Shown here: positions 3,914 to 32,941 of the stretch, in pieces | How the letters are laid out: every line of letters starts with the position of its first letter | Numbering within the stretch: the stretch's first letter is position 1 | DNA from: Thermoanaerobaculia bacterium | GTDB lineage: Bacteria > Acidobacteriota > Thermoanaerobaculia > Multivoradales > SZUA-115 | NCBI GenBank assembly: GCA_044869805.1 | Contig: JBIOXV010000005.1 | Span: 64,034-128,033 of the forward strand | Reading direction: 5' to 3' | DNA length: 64,000 nt | Made by a program: the position numbers and the translations under genes | Notes under the pieces: generated by a model | Databases searched by the model: none | Told to the model about the DNA's origin: nothing | The model's input: the letters and a program-made list of their open reading frames with translations, nothing else

Positions 3914-5563
3914 ATGCGTTTGATGCGCGCCCTGGCGTTCGCAATGCTCTGTTGCTTCGCGATCGCCGCCCAGCGGTCGCCCGCTGCGACCGCGGACCCT
4001 CCGGCGTCTGCCTCCGCATCGCCCTCGCCTTCGCAGCAGGCCTTCGAGCAGGCGCTCGCCGAGGTCCGCGCCGGCAGGCCGCAGTCCGCGCTCGCCATCC
4101 TCGAGCCCCTGCGCGGCCAGGCGTCGACCGAGCCCCCGGTGCTGGCCTTGCTCGGCGCGGTGTACCTCGAGTCGGGCCGGCCGCAAGATGCGCTGGCGGT
4201 CCTCGAGCCGCTGGCCAGCTCCCAGGCGGCCGATCCCGCCGTGCTCTACAACGCGGCACGGGCGGCGAAGGCGAGCGGGCAGGAGGAGAAAGCTCTGGCA
4301 TGGCTGGCGCGCTCGGCGGCCCTGGCGCCGGTCTCCCCCGCGGCACGCGAGCTGGGCCTCGCGCACGGCCGGGAGGGACAGTGGGAGGACGCCTATCGGC
4401 TGCTGCGGCCATGGGCCAAGGCGGTGGCGGGCGACGTCGAGGGCCGCCAGGCCGCGGCCTTTGCGGCGGTGAGGCTGGGCCGGCCGGCCGAGGCGCGGGA
4501 CCTCCTCGCCGGCCTGCCGCCCGACCCACCGCCGCGCCGGGTGCTGGAAGCCGAGATCTGTTTCGCGGAAGGAGACCCGAACGCCGCGCTCGCCGCCCTG
4601 GAGCCACTGCTCAGAGTGCCGCCGCCGGGCCTCGCTCGCGAGGTACGGCGCCTCGCCGCCGACGCGAACCTGTCCACGGGCCGCGCTGCCGAAGCCGTGG
4701 CGCAGCTCGCCGGGCACACCGGGGGCGATGCCGCGCTCGCGCTGCTCCTCGCCCAGGCCCAGTTCCAGACCGGCGAGGTGGAAGCGGCGCTCGCGACGCT
4801 CGAGCCCTTCGTGCCTCGCGACGCCTCCCACGCCGGCGCCGGGCCGAGCCTCGACCTCGAGTACGGCCGCATGCTGGTGGCCGCCGGCCGCGCCACGGAA
4901 GCCATCGACATCGTGCGCCGCGGCCTCGCCCGCCTACCCGAGGACCGGCAGGGCTGGCAAACGCTCGCCCAGGCGCTGCTGGCGGCCGGCCGCCGCGACG
5001 AGGGCCAGCAGGCGCTGGAGCGCTTTCGCGCGCTCGCCGCCGCCGAGGCCTCGGCTGCCGAGCGCAAGCGCGAGCTCGAGGCCACGGCCCGCGATGCCAC
5101 CGCCGCCGGCCTCGAACGCGCCATGGCGGCGCTCGCCGCCGGCCGGCCGGAGGACGCGCTGGCCCTGGCGCGGCGCGAGGCTTCGCTGGTCGCCGACGAC
5201 CCGCGGCCGCCGCTCGTCGCCGGCCACGTGCTGTTGACTCTGGGGCGCTACCAGGAAGCGCTCGCCGCCACCGAAGCTTCCCTGCGCCTCGCTCCCGACC
5301 AACCGGATGCGCTCTACCAGCACGGTGTCGCGGCTCTGGGGTCGGGCGACGTGGCGCGGGCCGAGAGCGACCTGCGGCGGGCGCTGGAGCTCGCGCCCGG
5401 GCACCTCGCGGCGCTGAACGATCTCGCCGTGCTGCTGCTCGGGACCGGCCGGAAGGAGGAGGCCGGCGGGCTCCTCGAGCGCGCCCTCGCGCTCAAGCCG
5501 GACGACCCGCGCGCGCGGCAGAGCCTGGAGAAGCTGAGAACGAGCCCCCCAGGAAGCAGATGA
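3914..5563 (+). CDS. Secreted TPR-repeat protein
   Basis: Start at MRLMRALAFAMLCCFAIAA (signal peptide). The 5' extension shown in the track is unlikely. Repeated TPR-like A/L-rich helices. Paralog of 7361..8986. Confidence 0.75.
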   Translation: MRLMRALAFAMLCCFAIAAQRSPAATADPPASASASPSPSQQAFEQALAEVRAGRPQSALAILEPLRGQASTEPPVLALLGAVYLESGRPQDALAVLEPLASSQAADPAVLYNAARAAKASGQEEKALAWLARSAALAPVSPAARELGLAHGREGQWEDAYRLLRPWAKAVAGDVEGRQAAAFAAVRLGRPAEARDLLAGLPPDPPPRRVLEAEICFAEGDPNAALAALEPLLRVPPPGLAREVRRLAADANLSTGRAAEAVAQLAGHTGGDAALALLLAQAQFQTGEVEAALATLEPFVPRDASHAGAGPSLDLEYGRMLVAAGRATEAIDIVRRGLARLPEDRQGWQTLAQALLAAGRRDEGQQALERFRALAAAEASAAERKRELEATARDATAAGLERAMAALAAGRPEDALALARREASLVADDPRPPLVAGHVLLTLGRYQEALAATEASLRLAPDQPDALYQHGVAALGSGDVARAESDLRRALELAPGHLAALNDLAVLLLGTGRKEEAGGLLERALALKPDDPRARQSLEKLRTSPPGSR

Positions 5564-5576
5564 ACACGGGAAGCAG

Positions 5577-7289
5577 ATGAACAGATTTGCTGCGCGACGG
5601 CCTCTTCACCAGCTCCTGCGCACCATGCATCGCGTCTCGACACCGATGCTCCTCGCTTGGTTCGCCTTCCTCGCCGGGGCCCAGGAGCCGTCGGCAATCC
5701 GCTTCCGTGAGGTGGCGAACGCCTGGGGCCTCGACTTCCGGCACCACCACGGCGGCTCCGGCCAGTACTTCATGGTCGAGACCATGGGCGGCGGCGTGAT
5801 CCTCTTCGACTACGACGGCGATGGCGACGCCGACGCCTTCTTCGTCGACAGCGGCGCGCTGCCCGGCTATCAGGGCGAGCCCGCCCGCTCGCGCCTGCTG
5901 CGCAACGACGGCGGGGGCCGCTTCGTCGACGTCACCGGTGACTCCGGCCTCGCGCTCAAGAGCTATGGCATGGGCGGCTCCGCCGGCGACGTCGACGGCG
6001 ACGCCGATCTCGACCTCTACGTCACCGCCTTCGGCAAGAACCAGCTCTTCGTGAACCAGGGCGATGGGCGGTTCACCGACGCCGGCGCCGGCTCGGGCGC
6101 CGACCTCGACTCGTGGAGCGCCTCGGCGGCGTTGGCCGACGTGGACCACGACGCCGACCTCGACCTCTTCGTGACCACCTACGTCGACTTCCGGCTCGAC
6201 AACCACAAGTTCTGCGGCGACCGCGAGCGCGGCATCCAGAGCTACTGCTCGCCGGAGGTCTACCAGGGCCTGCCCGAGCGCTTCTTCCGCAACCGCGGCG
6301 ACGGCACCTTCGAGGACGCGACCGCGGCGGCGGGCCTCGGCGGCGCGCTCGGCAACGGCCTGGGCGTGGTGGCCGCCGACCTGACCGAGGACGGCTGGCC
6401 CGACGTCTACGTGGCCAACGACGCCTCACCCAACTTCCTGTTCAAGAACCGCGGCGACGGCAGCTTCGAGGACATTTCGCTCGCCTCGGGCACCGCCTTC
6501 GGCGACCGCGGGCGGCCGGAGGGAGGCATGGGGGTGGCGGTGGCCGACTACGACGCCGACCTGCTGCCCGACATCGTGGTCACCAACTCGGAGCTCGAAA
6601 CCAACTCGCTGTTCAAGAACCTGGGCGGCGAGCTGTTCCGCGACAGCCGCTACGTGGCGCGGATCGCCGAGCCGTCGCTGATGGAGGTGGCCTTCGGCGT
6701 CGCCTTCGCCGATCTCGACAACGACGGCGACCCCGACCTTGCGATCGCCAACGGCCACATCCTCGACAACGCAGAGTTGTTCGCTGCCCGCAACACCTAC
6801 AAGCAACGCAACCAGGTGTTCGAGAACCTGGGCGGTGGCAAGTTCCGCGAGCTCCTGGACACCGGCGTCGACGTGGTGCGGGCGAGCCGTGGCCTGGCGG
6901 TGGGCGACCTCGACGCCGACGGCACGCTCGACCTCGTGATCGTCAACTGCAACGACGTCGCCGAGGCCTACCAGAACGCGACGGCGGGCGGCCATTGGCT
7001 GGCGGTCGAGCTCGCCGGCACGGCGAGCAACCGCTCGGGGCTGGGCGCCACGATCGAAGTGAGAGCCGGCGCCAGCCGGCAGGTGCAGGAGGTGCAGAGC
7101 GCCTCCTCGTACCTGTCGCAGAACGAGGCGGCGCTGCACTTCGGCCTCGGCCCGGCGACAGCGATCAACGAGCTCATCGTGCGCTGGCCGAGCGGCAGGC
7201 GCCAGCGGTTCCTCGGCCTCGCCGCCGACCGGCGGTTGCGGATCGCGGAAGGCGAGCCGACGCCGGCGCCCGCCGCCAGAGCGCAGTAG
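5577..7289 (+). CDS. CRTAC1-family protein (FG-GAP/VCBS repeats + ASPIC/UnbV C-terminal domain)
   Basis: Signal peptide. Repeated DxDGDGxxD calcium-binding FG-GAP motifs (DYDGDGDAD, DVDGDADLD, DLDNDGDPD). C-terminal ASPIC/UnbV-like segment (GTASNRSGLGATIEV...SYLSQNE). Confidence 0.85.
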   Translation: MNRFAARRPLHQLLRTMHRVSTPMLLAWFAFLAGAQEPSAIRFREVANAWGLDFRHHHGGSGQYFMVETMGGGVILFDYDGDGDADAFFVDSGALPGYQGEPARSRLLRNDGGGRFVDVTGDSGLALKSYGMGGSAGDVDGDADLDLYVTAFGKNQLFVNQGDGRFTDAGAGSGADLDSWSASAALADVDHDADLDLFVTTYVDFRLDNHKFCGDRERGIQSYCSPEVYQGLPERFFRNRGDGTFEDATAAAGLGGALGNGLGVVAADLTEDGWPDVYVANDASPNFLFKNRGDGSFEDISLASGTAFGDRGRPEGGMGVAVADYDADLLPDIVVTNSELETNSLFKNLGGELFRDSRYVARIAEPSLMEVAFGVAFADLDNDGDPDLAIANGHILDNAELFAARNTYKQRNQVFENLGGGKFRELLDTGVDVVRASRGLAVGDLDADGTLDLVIVNCNDVAEAYQNATAGGHWLAVELAGTASNRSGLGATIEVRAGASRQVQEVQSASSYLSQNEAALHFGLGPATAINELIVRWPSGRRQRFLGLAADRRLRIAEGEPTPAPAARAQ

Positions 7290-27683: not shown

Positions 27684-28517
27684 ATGACCGAGAAGCGCGC
27701 AGCCGGCGCCCCCGCGCCCCCACCGCGTCCGGTCGCGGCTCACGTCGAGGCCGCAATGGGGCGGCGGATCCAGGCCAAGGCCGCGGGGCAGGAGAAGACA
27801 CAGTCCGTGCAAGCCGCCGCGGCCCACGTGCAGCGCGCGATCTCGGCCGCCGCTCAGGCAAGGTTGCCGCACCAGGAAAGGGCGGCGCCGACGAGGACCC
27901 CTTCCCCCCACGTCCAGCGCGCGACCGCGCCGCCCCAGCCCAGGTTCGGCACCGCGGCGAGCGTTCAGCCAACGGCGGGCGGCTCCGCGCGATCGCTTGC
28001 GCCCCATCGCCAAGTGCAACCTCTGCCTGTCCGGTCAGCCGGAACCGTCCAGAGGGCACAAAAGCCTAGCTGGGACGAGTTCACCAACAAAGGAAGCAAA
28101 GCGCCGCCAAAGGTGGCGTCGGTGCCATCAAAACACAACCTAAACGCAAAAGACAAAGAGTATTCTCGACTGGCGCGGGATCTGCTGAAAGCTTATGCAG
28201 CAATGACTGACGCAATGATCGACGCGGCCCTAAAAGTGGAATTGAAAGAAGACGAAATGGGCAAGTACAATGCCCAGAGCACGGCCCTGGAAACGGATAG
28301 ACACAACATTGCGGAGGCTTTGGACGCCTATTTCGGCGGGGACGAGTGGGATGGGCAGAAATACGCCGTGCTGGAGGGCATCAACGTATACGGCGAGGAG
28401 TTCAATACCCTCAGGCTCCGCGCGGGCAGCCCTAACGACAGCGATTTCCTTGGCTGGAAGGCCCTCGTGAACCTGCTGAGATTGGTCAAGAGGGGGGAAG
28501 GAAAGTGGATTAGCTAG
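27684..28517 (+). CDS. Hypothetical protein with an abrupt internal GC shift
   Basis: GGAGG 5 nt upstream. The N-terminal 125 aa are an Ala/Pro/Gln-rich low-complexity region at about 72% GC. The C-terminal 150 aa (from about nt 28050) are a Lys/Asp-rich helical domain at about 50% GC. No family recognised. Confidence 0.55.
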   Translation: MTEKRAAGAPAPPPRPVAAHVEAAMGRRIQAKAAGQEKTQSVQAAAAHVQRAISAAAQARLPHQERAAPTRTPSPHVQRATAPPQPRFGTAASVQPTAGGSARSLAPHRQVQPLPVRSAGTVQRAQKPSWDEFTNKGSKAPPKVASVPSKHNLNAKDKEYSRLARDLLKAYAAMTDAMIDAALKVELKEDEMGKYNAQSTALETDRHNIAEALDAYFGGDEWDGQKYAVLEGINVYGEEFNTLRLRAGSPNDSDFLGWKALVNLLRLVKRGEGKWIS

Positions 28518-28591
28518 GGAGCGGATTGAGAGTCAGCGCCCCCACCTTTTCCCCGGCGCGCCCACAGGCTTCGTTCACGCTCTCGAGAAAC

Positions 28592-28609
28592 GGGGCTCTC
28601 GCGAGCCCC
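28592..28609. terminator. Stem-loop between convergent genes (GGGGCTC-tcgc-GAGCCCC)
   Basis: 7-bp GC stem seen in the sequence. Weak U tract on the minus side only. Confidence 0.3.
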
Positions 28610-28635: not shown

Positions 28636-29250
28636 CTAGTACAGGTCCTGGATTCCCGCGCGGTCGTCGTTGGCGAGCGACGCGGGGCCGTTGTTGCAGG
28701 CGGAGACCGAGGGATACATGGTGGCGCCGGAGACGCCGGAGTGGCCGAGGCCCAGCAGGTGGCCGACCTCGTGGGTGTGGATCGCCTCGGTGTAGAACTC
28801 GTTCGAGCAGCTCTCGCCCAGCGACGCCCAGGCGTGCTGCCGGTTGGTGACGATGTCCGCGTCGGTGATGCGGTAGGTGCCGTTCGGGCGCTGCGTGTAG
28901 AAGCCGGTGAAGGTGGCCGCCAGGCAGTTGTTGCGGCAGGCGCCGGTCGGGTCCTGGAAGTTGAGCATCGGGCGGCCGTCGCCCAGCGAGAAGCCGGAGA
29001 TCGAGCCGACGGTGGCCGACAGGCGGGTGCCGGTGCCGGCGCTGTTCCAGGCGAGGATGGCGTTGCGCGTGCGGGTGCGGCCAAGGTCGCCGTCGGTGAT
29101 CGAGGAGTTGCCGCGGCTGTCGACGACGACGTTGGGCGGGCTGTCCCAGGTGCGGCGCGGGGACAGCAGGACGTAGCCCAGCGCGCTGCCGGCCGCCAGC
29201 GTGGCGACCACCGCGAGGGCGAGAAGCGTGCGGATCTTCAGGTTGTTCAT
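28636..29250 (-). CDS. Secreted metzincin (matrixin/M10-like) zinc metalloprotease, minimal catalytic domain
   Basis: Signal peptide. HTHEVGHLLGLGHS is the HExxHxxGxxH motif. A downstream Met-turn (GATMYPS) is present. Confidence 0.8.
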   Translation of the reverse strand: MNNLKIRTLLALAVVATLAAGSALGYVLLSPRRTWDSPPNVVVDSRGNSSITDGDLGRTRTRNAILAWNSAGTGTRLSATVGSISGFSLGDGRPMLNFQDPTGACRNNCLAATFTGFYTQRPNGTYRITDADIVTNRQHAWASLGESCSNEFYTEAIHTHEVGHLLGLGHSGVSGATMYPSVSACNNGPASLANDDRAGIQDLY

Positions 29251-29271
29251 GGTCTTTTGCCCCCTCGTGGA

Positions 29272-29826
29272 TTAGTACTCGAGGCGGCCGGCGCGCCGGG
29301 CCTCAGCAAGGATCGAGTCCTTGAGGTCAGTGAGCAGCACGGTCTTCGCCGCCGGGGCCGGGCGGCCGTCCGGGAACAGCAGGCGGCCGCCGTCGTCCAC
29401 CGTGGGCACGGCCCACTCGAAGCCGGAACGGTCCATCACCAGCCGGAAGTGCCCCTGCTGGTAGCCGGCCACCTTGGCCACGCCGTCCTGCTCGCGCTCC
29501 AGGAACAACAGCACACGCTCGTTGGCGCCGAACCTGGGGAAGCCGTGCGCCTCCACGGTATAGCCGTCCACCGTGCCCCCCCAGGTCTTGACCCGGACCT
29601 GTGAGCCGGGATCGCCCAGCACCGCCTCCTCCACCTCGATCACCGCCTCCGAGACGATGACGCGCCCCTCCGCATCCCAGAACGAGTGCACCTCGAGCAC
29701 CTTGCCCTGCACGATGGCCGCCGCGTCCCGAACCAGCTCCGCGCGCGACATCGCGAGGAAGGTCGAGGCCGTGGCGGGCAAAGCCGCCAGCAGAGCCACG
29801 AGGCAGACTACCGACCAACGCTTCAT
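29272..29826 (-). CDS. Secreted hypothetical protein (184 aa) immediately upstream of the metzincin
   Basis: Start at MKRWSVVCLVALLAALPATAS (signal peptide), inside a longer artefactual track ORF. 21-nt gap to the protease gene. Confidence 0.6.
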   Translation of the reverse strand: MKRWSVVCLVALLAALPATASTFLAMSRAELVRDAAAIVQGKVLEVHSFWDAEGRVIVSEAVIEVEEAVLGDPGSQVRVKTWGGTVDGYTVEAHGFPRFGANERVLLFLEREQDGVAKVAGYQQGHFRLVMDRSGFEWAVPTVDDGGRLLFPDGRPAPAAKTVLLTDLKDSILAEARRAGRLEY

Positions 29827-29990
29827 GAACGACCTCCTTACGCCTCGATCCGAGGCGACACCAGGCCGCTGACCACCAGCGGCCCGATCAGATCCAGGAT
29901 GTGGGGGCTCGAAAGATGTCGGCCTACGAGGGGAGGTGTCCGGCCGGGGTGGAGTGTGACACCCCGGCCGGAGCAGGGGCGGCGAAATCG

Positions 29991-30593
29991 CTACGGCGTG
30001 CGGTCGATGCGCTGGCGCACCGGGTCCGGAATCACGAAGCAGCCGGCGGCGTCGCTCGAGAAGACGACGAAGGAGTCGGCCAGGAACAGGTTGACGCCGT
30101 GCTGGTAGGTGCACTCGACGTAGACGTCGAGGCCCGGGTTGAACGGCGTGCCGCCGTAGTTGTACACCCGCCCCGGAACGCTGTAGACGATCACCCCGCC
30201 CGGAGACGTGGTCACCCCGGTGTTGGGGGCGGCGTCCCATTCCTTGCCCTTGAGCTGCCAGTGATCTCCAGGCACGCAGCAGTCGGAGATGTGGAAGTCG
30301 ACGAAGGTTCCGGCGCCGCAGATGATGCGGAAGCCCTGCACTTCGGCGGGCCCGGCCGAGCGGCAGATCCACTGCTCTCTCCACTGCACCGCCGGGTCGA
30401 GAATCGGGAAGGGGATGCCGGGGAATGGGTTCGGCCCGATAGCGTCCTTGACCGCCGTCGAGAGTGCCGCGTCCACCGACGTGGCATCCTTCGCGTAGTT
30501 GGGCGAGTTCAGAGGGTCCGGCGGCGCGGCGAAGGCCGGGGTTGCGAGAGCCAGGACGAGCAGGCAGAGCAGAGCGAGAGTGCGCTTCGACAT
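29991..30593 (-). CDS. Secreted Cys-rich hypothetical protein (200 aa)
   Basis: Signal peptide MSKRTLALLCLLVLALATPAFA. Seven Cys in the mature part. No family recognised. Confidence 0.6.
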   Translation of the reverse strand: MSKRTLALLCLLVLALATPAFAAPPDPLNSPNYAKDATSVDAALSTAVKDAIGPNPFPGIPFPILDPAVQWREQWICRSAGPAEVQGFRIICGAGTFVDFHISDCCVPGDHWQLKGKEWDAAPNTGVTTSPGGVIVYSVPGRVYNYGGTPFNPGLDVYVECTYQHGVNLFLADSFVVFSSDAAGCFVIPDPVRQRIDRTP

Positions 30594-30872: not shown

Positions 30873-31541
30873 GTGAGCCAGCCAGACTCGCAGCCGCTGA
30901 CTTCCGTTCCCGCCGTCCACTCCACGGGTGCGCGCGTGGCGGTTGGCCTGGCGAAGATCGGGATGGTCCTCCGCAGCCATGCCTGGCAGGAGGGCTTTGC
31001 GCAGGACCTCACACCCACTCAGGGCCAGGTTCTGGCTCACCTCGAGCGCCAGCCTGGCCTGACCCTCAACCAGGTCGCCGACGGGCTCGGCGTGCGCGCC
31101 TCCACGGCCTCCGAGGCCGTGGGCGTGTTGGAAAAGAAGGGGCTGGTCATCAAGCAGCGCCCGCTCGAGGACGCGCGGCGCCTCTCGCTGTCGCTCACCG
31201 AGGCCGGCAAGCGGGAGGCCGCCCGCGTCGCCACCTGGCCGGATTTTCTGGCGCAGGTGGTCGAAGGCCTCTCCGAGGAGGAGCAGGGCGTGCTGCTGCG
31301 CCTGGTGCAGCGCATGATCCGCGAGCTGCAGCTCCGGGGCGAGGTCCCGGTGAGCCGCATGTGCTCGACCTGCCGGTACTTCCGCCCCTATGTCCACGAC
31401 GACGCCCGCAACCCCCACCACTGCGCCTACGTGAACCTGCCGTTCGGCAACCCTGACCTGCGCATGGACTGCCCCGAGCAGGATCCGGCGACGGGTGCCG
31501 AGGCGGACGCCGCCTGGGAGCGCTTCGCTGGCGTCGGCTAG
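30873..31541 (+). CDS. MarR-family regulator with C-terminal Cys/His-rich extension
   Basis: MarR wHTH (LTPTQGQVLAHLERQPGLTLNQVADGLGVRASTASEAVGVLEKKGLV). C-terminal 60 aa contain C-x2-C ... HHC ... C (CSTCRYF...HHCAY...MDCPE). Confidence 0.75.
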   Translation: MSQPDSQPLTSVPAVHSTGARVAVGLAKIGMVLRSHAWQEGFAQDLTPTQGQVLAHLERQPGLTLNQVADGLGVRASTASEAVGVLEKKGLVIKQRPLEDARRLSLSLTEAGKREAARVATWPDFLAQVVEGLSEEEQGVLLRLVQRMIRELQLRGEVPVSRMCSTCRYFRPYVHDDARNPHHCAYVNLPFGNPDLRMDCPEQDPATGAEADAAWERFAGVG

Positions 31542-32941
31542 CTGGGGGCGGGCGGGCGTAGCGGCGCGAGCGCCGCTGCCAGGTCGCTGCGGATCAGCTC
31601 GAAGAAGGTGCGGCTGCCTCTGGTGTTCCAGTGCATGTCGCCGCGCGGCATGAAGAACGAGCGGCCTTCCCGCGCGTGACGCTCGGCCATCGCCGCCGTG
31701 GGATCGAAGCAGGTGATGCCGCGCTCGCGGCAAAAGCGGGCCAGCCGCCGGTTGGCAGCCATCAGATCGAAGCGCCGGGGCTCGAGCCCGTAGCCCGCGA
31801 CCGTCGCCTGCCAGTCCGCGGGCTGGAGCTGGTAGCGCTGGGCGTGGACGGCGAGGAGGAAGCGCGCCCCGTGCGCCCGGCAGCGCTCGTCGTAGGCCGC
31901 GAGCAGCGCGAACAGCAGCTCGTAGGCGCGCTCGGTCTCGGGCGGCGCCGGCTCGAGGTACATGCCGAGGCCGTTGCCGTCGAAGAGCCGCGGCCTCGCG
32001 TACTCGTTCCAGATCGAGAGGATCGGGTAGGCGGTGGCGCGGTCTCGGCGGTCGGCCGCCGCCTGGCGCACGAAGCGCAGCAGGTGGAACCGCGACTCGA
32101 GGGCCGAGGGCGGCCCGGGCGCGGGCACCGCCGGCGGGCCGGGGCCAGGGCCTGAGAGCGCCTCCGGCGGCAGCAGCGGCTGCTCGACCCTGGCGAGGCT
32201 CGCCGGCCGGTCGGCGTCCGGGTTGAGCACCAGCGCCGGCGCGGAGCCCGGCGGCTCGAGGCGATAGTGCCCGCTGGCGCCGAGGTTGAAGTAGACCTGG
32301 GCGATGTCGTTGCCCAGGGTGAGGCCGAGCATCACCACCTGCGGCTCGAAGGCGAGCCCGTGACGCTCGAGGTAGTAGAGGCCGGTCGCCGGTTCCTCGA
32401 TCGCGGCGACCAGGACTTCGGCGCCCGGGAAGCTGCCCTCGCCGCCGAGCCAGGCCTCGACCTGCGCCGGCACGGTGTCCTCCTGGCCGAGCCGGTGCCC
32501 GACGACGAAAGAGTCGCCGAGCGCGAGGATGCGCAGCACTCCAGGTGGCCGCCGGCGCGCGTACTCGCGCCGGCTCCTGAAGCCGAGCGAGTTGTGGACC
32601 CACTCGACCGGCCTCCCCAGCTCGTCGGTGACCAGGCCCGAGAAGCCGGGGGCGAGGAAGCCGGCGTCGCCGAGCTCGCCGGTGCGGAAGGCGCTCGCCT
32701 GATACGCCTCTTCGTAGCGCGAGCGGCGCTGCTCGCCGATCGCGTGCCGGCGTTCCTGAAAGCGCACCCCGAGCTCGGCGAGGCCGAGCCCGGCGGCGAG
32801 AGAGAGGAGAACGGCCGAGACTGCGTAGAGCCGGCGGCGGCGCGATGGGCGCGGCTCGAGGTCCGGCGCCGCGCCGCGGGTCTCGCTCGAGAATGCCGTG
32901 GCGTGGGTCCTCGGGAGCTCGGCGCCTGGTTTCACGTGCAT
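31538..32941 (-). CDS. Membrane-anchored SGNH/GDSL-family hydrolase
   Basis: N-terminal TM. GDS block LALGDSFVVG. C-terminal DMHWNTRG (DxxH). Confidence 0.7.
   Translation of the reverse strand: MHVKPGAELPRTHATAFSSETRGAAPDLEPRPSRRRRLYAVSAVLLSLAAGLGLAELGVRFQERRHAIGEQRRSRYEEAYQASAFRTGELGDAGFLAPGFSGLVTDELGRPVEWVHNSLGFRSRREYARRRPPGVLRILALGDSFVVGHRLGQEDTVPAQVEAWLGGEGSFPGAEVLVAAIEEPATGLYYLERHGLAFEPQVVMLGLTLGNDIAQVYFNLGASGHYRLEPPGSAPALVLNPDADRPASLARVEQPLLPPEALSGPGPGPPAVPAPGPPSALESRFHLLRFVRQAAADRRDRATAYPILSIWNEYARPRLFDGNGLGMYLEPAPPETERAYELLFALLAAYDERCRAHGARFLLAVHAQRYQLQPADWQATVAGYGLEPRRFDLMAANRRLARFCRERGITCFDPTAAMAERHAREGRSFFMPRGDMHWNTRGSRTFFELIRSDLAAALAPLRPPAPS

Follow-up and report, generated by a model that had tools for sequence, protein, structure and literature searches.

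The conserved unit at this locus is a two-gene secreted module, in which a gene for a 184-aa protein (gene B) directly precedes a gene for a secreted matrixin (gene C), and the third secreted gene beside them (gene A) is an unrelated neighbour. In the window, by which we mean the whole 64,000-nt stretch of Thermoanaerobaculia bacterium DNA that was analysed, the three genes all lie on the minus strand and all encode signal peptides, as a preliminary description of this DNA had reported. Gene B is predicted to adopt the fold of TIMP/NTR modules, and we give slightly better than even chances to the reading that it is a cysteine-free TIMP-fold inhibitor or latency partner of matrixin C. The features of the locus are as follows.

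28585..28609, minus strand: terminator-like hairpin 3' of gene C, GGGGCUC-GCGA-GAGCCCC then GUUUCUC (sequence and folding)
28636..29250, minus strand: gene C, 204 aa, secreted matrixin (MEROPS M10A-like), catalytic domain only
29251..29271, minus strand: B-C spacer, 21 nt, with the gene C ribosome-binding site GAGGGGG (sequence)
29272..29826, minus strand: gene B, 184 aa, secreted, predicted TIMP/NTR-like OB fold (sequence and fold prediction)
29827..29936, minus strand: gene B upstream region, probable B-C promoter and 5' UTR (conserved with the closest relative)
29841-29857, minus strand: stem-loop CGCCUCG-GAU-CGAGGCG adjoining the gene B Shine-Dalgarno (sequence)
29937..29975, minus strand: strong GC hairpin just 3' of the gene A stop (folding)
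29991..30593, minus strand: gene A, 200 aa, secreted 6-Cys jelly-roll protein, a neighbour outside the conserved module
30873..31541, plus strand: divergent MarR gene, PF12802, with a C-terminal CxxC...HHC...C cluster (sequence and Pfam)

A conserved gene pair and its neighbours

A metzincin lies directly downstream of the gene B homologue in all 49 related genome loci, so the synteny is found elsewhere, and in 48 of these loci the downstream same-strand metzincin is a close gene C homologue; in the 49th, L049, which is a distant locus, the metzincin is one of 420 aa with HEAGHYIGMCH. The 48 loci with a close gene C homologue supply 56 B-C pairs, whose spacer has a median length of 23 nt and measures 10-40 nt in 52 of the 56. 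At the present locus, the gene B stop is separated from the gene C start by exactly 21 nt, as the preliminary description had it, with the Shine-Dalgarno inside. The hairpin that follows gene C folds with a dG of -29.2 kcal/mol (z -2.9), and at the other end of the pair an alignment with the closest relative, L001, which has no gene A, is near-identical over the ~70 nt preceding the gene B ATG. Genes B and C share a reading frame.

Old paralogous B-C pairs occur in several loci and genomes, a pattern of co-duplication. The distance matrices of B and C are also correlated (r 0.67; Mantel test, 0/2000 permutations), a correlation that is confounded by shared phylogeny and that we do not take as evidence of contact between the two proteins. 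Among the more distant representatives, the gene B homologue precedes or overlaps an M10 gene in L054, L058 and L059, and in L055 the next gene is truncated and looks like the first half of a metzincin; no metzincin gene neighbours P0448, another distant B-like protein. In natural fusions the B domain takes the prodomain position, ahead of the M10 catalytic domain: P0368 runs from a signal peptide through a B domain and a short linker to an FVLLSP... M10 domain, P0369 is N-truncated and comprises the B domain, a short linker and an FVLLSP... M10 domain, and P0420 joins a B-like domain to M10 and Ig repeats. As the junctions of all of these lack the gene C signal peptide, they do not represent stop-codon read-through.

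Gene A was rejected as a member of the module given its absence from the related loci and the hairpin between A and B. It is missing from all 49 loci, the closest relative included, within flanks of up to 6 kb on each side, and its homologues elsewhere stand alone among unrelated genes. Its product has the signal peptide MSKRTLALLCLLVLALATPAFA, followed by AP, and seven cysteines, six of them in the mature part. The 164 nt between gene A and gene B contain a 13-bp GC hairpin (dG -35 kcal/mol, z -4.93; 0/200 shuffles fold as well) that probably marks the end of the A transcript, parting it from B-C. Co-transcription of all three genes, which had been proposed initially, is thus unsupported by sequence, and of the suggested trio the B-C pair was recovered in 48/49 loci and gene A in none. 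The divergent MarR gene does carry the C-terminal Cys/His cluster attributed to it; as it is linked only at the closest relative's locus, however, no regulatory tie can be drawn, and it was rejected as a conserved regulator of B-C.

The matrixin and its predicted TIMP-fold partner

Gene C belongs to the matrixins. It matches PF00413 (Peptidase_M10) with an E-value of 3.8e-15 and a score of 56.6 bits (cut-off 24), a match that covers profile positions 84-158 only, and its best PDB relatives are MMP-1, -7, -8, -12 and karilysin; its N-terminal two-thirds have no PDB sequence match. The zinc motif and Met-turn claimed for it are present.

29176..29250, minus strand: gene C signal peptide, residues 1-25, ending ...AAGSALG before YVLL (sequence)
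28741..28773, minus strand: gene C zinc motif H160-EVG-H164-LLGLG-H170 (sequence)
28717..28719, minus strand: gene C Met-turn M178 (ATMYP), aligning with MMP-1 ALMYP

H160, E161, H164 and H170 do not vary across 34 homologues, and the Met-turn methionine is likewise invariant in homologues. Gene C had been taken for a metzincin reduced to its core, but its ~179 mature residues form a catalytic domain of full size, with neither a canonical prodomain nor a hemopexin domain. No cysteine-switch prodomain (PRCGxPD, ~80 residues) is present in gene C; the signal peptide leads directly into the predicted mature N-terminus YVLLSPRRTW, in which YVLLSP...W may resemble the start of mature MMP-1 and of mature karilysin. 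A Y[VA]L-type N-terminus directly follows the predicted gene C signal peptide in 56/56 pairs and reads YVLLSPRRTW in most. Ahead of the active-site helix, gene C exceeds the MMP-8 catalytic domain by only ~23 residues, and it may carry a short N-terminal propeptide of <25 residues. Its homologues have no conserved His outside the catalytic motif and so lack the MMP structural zinc site (3 His + Asp, S-loop); gene C has four conserved cysteines (105, 109, 148 and 185) in its stead. Equivalence of motifs to MMP LAHAF and DAHFD is our assumption.

Gene B encodes a secreted protein whose type I signal-peptidase site, with cleavage between A-T-A and S, follows the -3/-1 rule and leaves a mature part of 164 residues.

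29767..29826, minus strand: gene B signal peptide, residues 1-20, MKRWSVVCLVALLAALPATA, then STFL (sequence)
29758..29766, minus strand: gene B S21-T22-F23 codons, predicted mature N-terminus and proposed zinc-binding tip

STF stands right after the A-x-A site in 55 of the 56 B-C pairs, with GTF in L047, and is invariant in an alignment of 30 sequences. Across 138 B-family representatives sharing at most 50% identity, the domain begins exactly at the predicted signal-peptidase site: its first residue is Ser in 80 and Thr in 48 (128/138), the -1 residue is Ala in 122, and cleavage is predicted at precursor residue 19-30. The mature protein contains no cysteine, and none is conserved across the family. 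Gene B was rejected as a lipoprotein for want of a lipobox Cys (the +1 residue is Ser) and as a pilin-like protein for want of a prepilin motif.

Sequence comparison gives gene B no family. It has no match in Pfam or NCBIfam at E up to 1, TIMP/NTR profiles included, and thus no unrelated family assignment there; an hmmsearch of its profile against PDB sequences returned no match and no TIMP, and hhalign against the N-domains of TIMP-1 to -4 gave a probability of 0.15%. B-like proteins are nevertheless numerous in profile searches, amounting at 50% identity to ~11,000 clusters at E <= 1e-3 and ~2,900 at E <= 1e-10. The predicted structure, on the other hand, matches the OB fold of NTR modules, and its strongest Foldseek matches are TIMP/NTR modules, with target-normalised TM-scores of ~0.5-0.65. 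The model also follows a TIMP-like order of elements, with an N-terminal strand, a short helix, a long beta-A/B hairpin and, at the far end, a C-terminal helix. The preliminary description had compared the pair with systems such as serralysin-Inh but with unrelated sequences; this holds at the level of sequence and does not extend to the predicted fold, which makes TIMP-MMP the closest analogue rather than serralysin-Inh. One may postulate that B and C are secreted proteins that are merely co-expressed, with independent functions, and that the TIMP resemblance reflects either chance likeness among OB folds in general or a model artefact; we regard this as very improbable.

A proposed latency mechanism and its alternatives

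The gene of a small secreted MMP-like protease that has no canonical propeptide always comes just after that of a secreted protein with a predicted TIMP fold, which suggests that members of this unannotated bacterial family serve such proteases as an inhibitor or prodomain that can detach. The linkage at all 49 loci and the B-M10 fusions likewise give strong contextual support to the original proposal that gene B may be a cognate inhibitor or chaperone of the protease. In the mechanism that we propose, gene B would be translated just ahead of gene C from the same mRNA, its cleavage by signal peptidase would create the first mature residue Ser21 (S-T-F), and gene C would leave the Sec translocon as a matrixin catalytic domain without a canonical prodomain. 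Gene B would bind 1:1 in the active-site cleft of gene C, either in the periplasm or extracellularly, and would hold it latent, a role that may be called that of an inhibitor or, just as well, that of a prodomain provided in trans. Where lineages have the B domain fused ahead of the catalytic domain, the same action would take place in cis.

Both TIMP (Cys1-Thr2) and Inh/AprI (Ser1) place a free N-terminus on the catalytic zinc of the protease. By analogy, the alpha-amino and carbonyl groups of the N-terminal Ser/Thr might chelate the catalytic zinc of gene C while residues 2-4 fill the primed subsites, a geometry to which we assign chances not far short of even. A broader conjecture, which we put forward more tentatively still, is that the B family as a whole comprises the latency devices native to prokaryotic matrixins, which would work in trans or in cis through zinc chelation by the alpha-amine of a Ser/Thr laid bare by signal peptidase.

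The strict operon pairing and the prodomain position of the B domain in fusions would also suit a dedicated folding or secretion chaperone, that is, a steric foldase released once gene C has folded, and Foldseek relates the gene B model weakly, through the OB fold, to CsaA, a secretion chaperone (TM 0.3-0.4). MMP catalytic domains, however, generally fold without prodomains, the strongest structural matches of gene B are TIMP/NTR modules and not chaperones, and an invariant free N-terminal Ser/Thr has no obvious role in a foldase; we consider this reading distinctly improbable. NTR modules are not always inhibitors, given that the NTR of PCOLCE is part of an enhancer and that laminin is the ligand of agrin NtA, and both PCOLCE and agrin NtA, as enhancer or matrix-binding modules, are among the top structural matches of gene B. 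Gene B could on this basis be a non-inhibitory partner, either an adaptor or enhancer that targets gene C to a substrate or to a surface polymer (compare the PCPE NTR) or the physiological substrate of gene C, releasing an active fragment when cleaved, which has been suggested for Listeria Tim. The conserved basic helix at its C-terminus (...EARRAGR) is compatible with this, as is the Listeria protease Mtz, which cleaves its partner Tim, inhibition being undemonstrated in that system (PMC8235301). Yet gene B contains neither a tether nor a lipobox to be cleaved; its domain starts at the signal-peptidase site; the fusions put it exactly where a latency domain would sit; and an invariant N-terminus is a hallmark of inhibitors that act by N-terminal insertion, such as TIMP and Inh. 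A non-inhibitory role is accordingly one that we judge unlikely, if less so than a foldase, and latency remains our preferred reading. As the B-C pair is small (164 + 179 mature residues), these proposals are directly testable.

Known systems and wider significance

In the comparison with TIMP (PF00965, MEROPS I35) and MMP (M10A), for which TIMP sequences were validated against PDB, the putative target is a matrixin and the fold predicted for gene B is an NTR/OB module. The functional domain in both follows immediately on the signal peptide (as predicted in gene B), and residue 2 of gene B is Thr, the same as in TIMP-1 and TIMP-3. Gene B nonetheless has no sequence homology to TIMP; its residue 1 is Ser/Thr rather than Cys, and its mature protein is ~40 residues longer than the TIMP counterpart. 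Three disulfides, Cys1-Cys70 among them, keep the inhibitory ridge of N-TIMP rigid, whereas gene B has none and no Cys. Unlike TIMP, gene B is bacterial, lies in an operon with its protease and is fused N-terminal to the protease in some lineages.

The Mtz-Tim system of Listeria monocytogenes, a metzincin and a TIMP-like partner whose genes are always paired (PMC8235301), is one partial precedent for B-C. There the protease gene comes first, the reverse of the B-C order, and Tim is a lipoprotein whose TIMP-like part lies behind a ~50-residue tether that Mtz cleaves; gene B has no tether. Mtz-Tim is borne by phages or mobile elements in Firmicutes; in tblastn searches against phages, gene B gave chance-level matches only and gene C none, and gene B had no significant match in PHROGs. 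The phenotype reported for Mtz-Tim is cell-wall sensitisation, with cleavage of Tim by Mtz reported and inhibition undemonstrated (PMC8235301).

Inhibitor genes co-transcribed with protease genes are also known from the potempins and KLIKK proteases (PMC9890683). The potempin A-karilysin pair of Tannerella forsythia is alike in that the inhibitor gene lies immediately upstream of an MMP-like protease gene and is co-transcribed with it (PMC9890683), and in that PotA, which guards the producer from its own protease, is an OB-type beta-barrel. PotA is, however, a 98-residue outer-membrane lipoprotein that inhibits through an internal loop (Tyr63/Asp64) and not its N-terminus, in contrast to the 164 mature residues of gene B and their lack of a lipobox Cys, and karilysin is made with a short propeptide and carries a C-terminal domain of the T9SS type; PotA was absent from the top structural matches of gene B. 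Inh/AprI (MEROPS I38) resembles gene B in that it is small, is exported by Sec and has its gene next to that of the metzincin it inhibits, although its fold is an eight-stranded up-and-down beta-barrel rather than the OB/NTR fold predicted here, its targets are T1SS-secreted M10B serralysins, and Inh was absent from the structural matches of gene B. The mature N-terminal Ser of Inh (S-S-L...) reportedly inserts in the active site with its amine on the zinc (Hege et al. 2001, cited in PMC8235301).

TIMPs are regarded as an animal family (PMC4860685), and a study of bacterial MMP evolution nowhere mentions inhibitors (PMC12587646). If bacteria widely pair matrixins with a TIMP-fold protein, this would bear on the origin of MMP/TIMP regulatory logic and on the dispute over which way MMP genes passed between bacteria and animals. 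If our reading is true, thousands of clusters of 'hypothetical proteins' would gain a function, it would become clear how bacterial matrixins without a canonical prodomain spare their producer, and a disulfide-free TIMP-like scaffold, easy to produce in E. coli, would be available for engineering metalloprotease inhibitors. Under the broader conjecture of zinc-chelating latency devices, TIMP-style inhibition of MMPs would not have originated with animals; either it would be an ancient bacterial device, or there would have been a striking convergence on one fold and on one way of using the N-terminus.

Organization of the locus

The window has a GC content of ~71%, and the region is most closely related to MAGs of Thermoanaerobaculia (Acidobacteriota). 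A preliminary description had proposed that three minus-strand genes for secreted proteins (A, B and C) are co-transcribed beside a divergent MarR gene, with B possibly acting as the cognate inhibitor or chaperone of the metzincin C. All three open reading frames were found, each preceded by a Shine-Dalgarno sequence and starting with a classical Sec signal peptide whose cleavage site is of the A-x-A type, and the metzincin motif, the Met-turn, the 21-nt B-C spacer and the Cys/His cluster of the divergent MarR were likewise confirmed in the sequence.

27684 to 28517, plus strand: 277-aa basic protein, convergent with C; low-complexity N-terminal half, no family matches
28636 to 29250, minus strand: gene C, 204-aa secreted M10 matrixin
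29272 to 29826, minus strand: gene B, 184-aa secreted protein
29991 to 30593, minus strand: gene A, Cys-rich 200-aa secreted protein
30873 to 31541, plus strand: MarR gene, divergent, with a C-terminal CxxC...HHC...C cluster
31538 to 32941, minus strand: 467-aa SGNH/GDSL-like hydrolase; weak PF13472 and AlgX-like family matches

We aligned 30 B homologues (alignment A1) and scanned one genome per species, and the gene content of the resulting 49 loci was assessed by tblastn with all six local proteins. Conservation of the trio elsewhere held for B and C and not for A: at 48 of 49 loci the next gene after B, in the same orientation, is a C homologue, and gene A was absent from all 49 (flanks up to 6 kb on each side). 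At the remaining locus (L049), a 420-aa metzincin (HEAGHYIGMCH) with a weak PF00413 match lies 15 nt beyond a B-like gene of 36% identity. Once two-copy loci are counted there are 56 B-C pairs, with a median spacer of 23 nt (10-40 nt in 52 of the 56). We consider it very improbable that B and C do not interact.

The proposal of a three-gene unit was therefore abandoned, given that A is missing even from the closest relative's locus (L001), where the SGNH hydrolase, MarR, B and C are arranged as in the window, and that a 13-bp GC hairpin without a U-tract directly follows the A stop codon (29937-29975, minus strand; dG -35 kcal/mol, z -4.9). Homologues of A in other genomes neighbor unrelated genes, and A was rejected as a module member; AlphaFold2 models it (pLDDT 83) as a generic jelly-roll beta-sandwich for which no specific functional match was found. 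The ~110-130 nt preceding B show conservation in the nucleotide comparison with L001, suggesting that B-C has its own promoter and 5′UTR. The 3′ half of the hairpin and the sequence downstream are kept in L001, though it lacks gene A. A 7-bp stem-loop (CGCCUCG-GAU-CGAGGCG; 29841-29857, minus strand), identical in L001, abuts the B Shine-Dalgarno and might be a 5′UTR stabilizer or a translational control element.

A tie of MarR to the locus was not supported either, as the linkage to B-C occurs only in the window genome and L001. The L001 MarR homologue (about 5035-5655) has 80% identity and conserves all four Cys and the HH of the ~60-residue C-terminal extension, a candidate metal- or redox-sensing module.

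The protease and its lack of a canonical prodomain

Protein C carries the motif H160-EVG-H164-LLGLG-H170 and Met-turn M178, and matches Pfam Peptidase_M10 (E 3.8e-15). Its closest PDB relatives are MMP-1, -7, -8, -12 and karilysin, with alignments that extend from the active-site helix through the C-terminal residue; the end of C coincides exactly with that of MMP catalytic domains. The signal peptide of C is followed immediately by YVLLSPRRTW, the start of a mature protein of ~179 residues. All 56 pairs share a Y[VA]L-type N-terminus at this predicted position, and most have YVLLSPRRTW. Since only ~23 more residues precede the active-site helix than in the MMP-8 catalytic domain, C has no room for a canonical ~80-residue prodomain, while a short propeptide is possible. 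Among C homologues the only conserved His residues are those of the catalytic motif, and the MMP structural zinc site is therefore absent; the four conserved Cys are probably paired in two disulfides.

PPC-like and small Cys-knot C-terminal domains are typical of secreted proteases. By eye, some C homologues (L027, L034, L037-L046) carry such additions after a Gly-rich linker: a PPC-like domain of ~100 residues or a Cys-knot of ~35 residues (C..C..SNSxCCSNxC...C).

Fold, N-terminus and fusions of B

Protein B had no match in Pfam, NCBIfam or PHROGs, nor did its family profile among PDB sequences. Its AlphaFold2 model (30 sequences) is nonetheless confident (pLDDT 88.5, pTM 0.82), and agrin NtA, TIMP-1 and TIMP-2 rank at the top in Foldseek (E ~1e-3, target-normalized TM 0.5-0.65). 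The modeled elements, an N-terminal strand (22-24), a short helix (28-34), a long hairpin (37-50 and 57-70), further strands and a C-terminal helix, appear in the order of N-TIMP. Sequence homology to a TIMP-1 to -4 N-domain alignment was not found (hhalign probability 0.15%); a profile of the latter retrieved TIMP-1, -2 and -3 PDB chains over full N-domains. Mature B contains no cysteines, and on both sequence and disulfides it was rejected as a TIMP family member. Besides the N-terminus, the family-wide invariants are G83-G84 (100%), G71 and G125 (99%), and W50 and G95 (97%), which the model places in loops that follow strands C and D.

The predicted mature N-terminus, right after the signal-peptidase site, is S-T-F-[LVIMA] in 55 of 56 pairs and G-T-F in the other (L047). 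We extended this with hmmalign to 151 sequences (149 profile-search representatives at <=50% identity plus P0001 and P0019), of which 138 had an aligned residue at the Ser21 position and enough upstream sequence. This residue is Ser in 80 and Thr in 48, falls at precursor position 19-30, and is preceded by Ala in 122; because these residues sit at the predicted cleavage position, the B domain is predicted to begin at the very first mature residue family-wide. In TIMPs, the catalytic zinc is chelated by the Cys1 alpha-amine and carbonyl, with Thr/Ser2 at S1′, and TIMPs lose activity upon N-terminal extension or carbamylation; Inh/AprI use the amine of an N-terminal Ser likewise. A similar chelation of the C zinc by the N-terminal amine of B is conceivable, and we put this geometry forward tentatively.

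Searching 1.84 billion representatives with the A1 profile gave 11,333 matches at E<=1e-3, 2,883 at E<=1e-10 and 60 at E<=1e-30, and natural B-M10 fusions were found among the best 150. These and adjacent gene pairs at distant loci are as follows.

P0368 (635 aa): signal peptide ending SG, then STFLPMS..., B domain, linker ...ALRRTAEP, FVLLSPARTW..., M10 domain (HEVGHGLGLAH; PF00413 E 3e-12)
P0369: junction as in P0368; N-terminally truncated
P0420 (1071 aa): AGA, then TVVVPM..., B-like domain, M10 domain (HELGHVLGLDH), Ig-like repeats
L054: B-like gene, then M10 gene
L055: B-like gene, then truncated gene resembling a metzincin N-terminal half
L058: B-like gene, then M10 gene (HEIGHMIGLAH), 17-nt overlap
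L059: B-like gene, then M10 gene (HEAGHFLGLDH), 4-nt overlap
L060: B-like gene, then metzincin-like protein without HExxH

The fusions are genuine, as their junctions lack the internal C signal peptide, and in them the B domain occupies the position of the metzincin prodomain. The L060 partner (4608-6611; 667 aa, metzincin-like in its N-terminal half, with a CarboxypepD_reg domain) may be a pseudo-protease; in P0372, CarboxypepD_reg is joined to a fragment of a B-like domain, and no metzincin neighbor was found for the orphan B-like protein P0448.

A proposed latency model and known systems

The most economical reading, which we hold to be probable, is that B is an inhibitor or trans-supplied prodomain keeping C latent; binding, inhibition and geometry are inferred. 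The earlier inhibitor-pair idea is strengthened by the conserved adjacency and made more specific. From a bicistronic mRNA, B would be made first, exported and relieved of its signal peptide, exposing Ser21, and would bind the C cleft as soon as C folds; the same domain would act in cis where fused in other lineages.

TIMP-MMP is the closest functional analogue. Inh/AprI share the N-terminal Ser principle with B but differ in fold. In potempin A-karilysin the inhibitor gene is upstream and co-transcribed, an arrangement that B-C would share, whereas PotA is a lipoprotein that inhibits via an internal loop (PMC9890683). The only bacterial precedent found in our literature search, in which neither "bacterial TIMP" nor "prokaryotic TIMP" occurred as a phrase, is Listeria Mtz-Tim, a phage-borne metzincin gene followed by one for a lipoprotein, TIMP-like by Phyre2 prediction; the authors of that study found no further TIMP-like records in bacteria (PMC8235301). 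Tim is cleaved by Mtz, and its inhibition of Mtz was not demonstrated (PMC8235301); that B is likewise a cleaved effector, as proposed for Tim, or a non-inhibitory adaptor, is unlikely. We consider it quite unlikely that B serves as a foldase for C.

Distances of B and C are correlated (r 0.67, Mantel 0/2000), a correlation confounded by phylogeny. Two pairs, divergent or tandem, occur at several loci, and in several MAGs the pairs are spread over more than one contig. B paralogues within a locus are 0.46-0.49 apart and hence old, so each pair was duplicated and retained as a unit. Divergent double pairs occur at L002, L006, L008, L013 and L035, and tandem ones at L037, L041 and L043. Many Thermoanaerobaculia genomes hold at least two B-C pairs that are old paralogues, in some cases placed back to back at a single locus, which suggests cognate inhibitor-protease specificities diversifying together.
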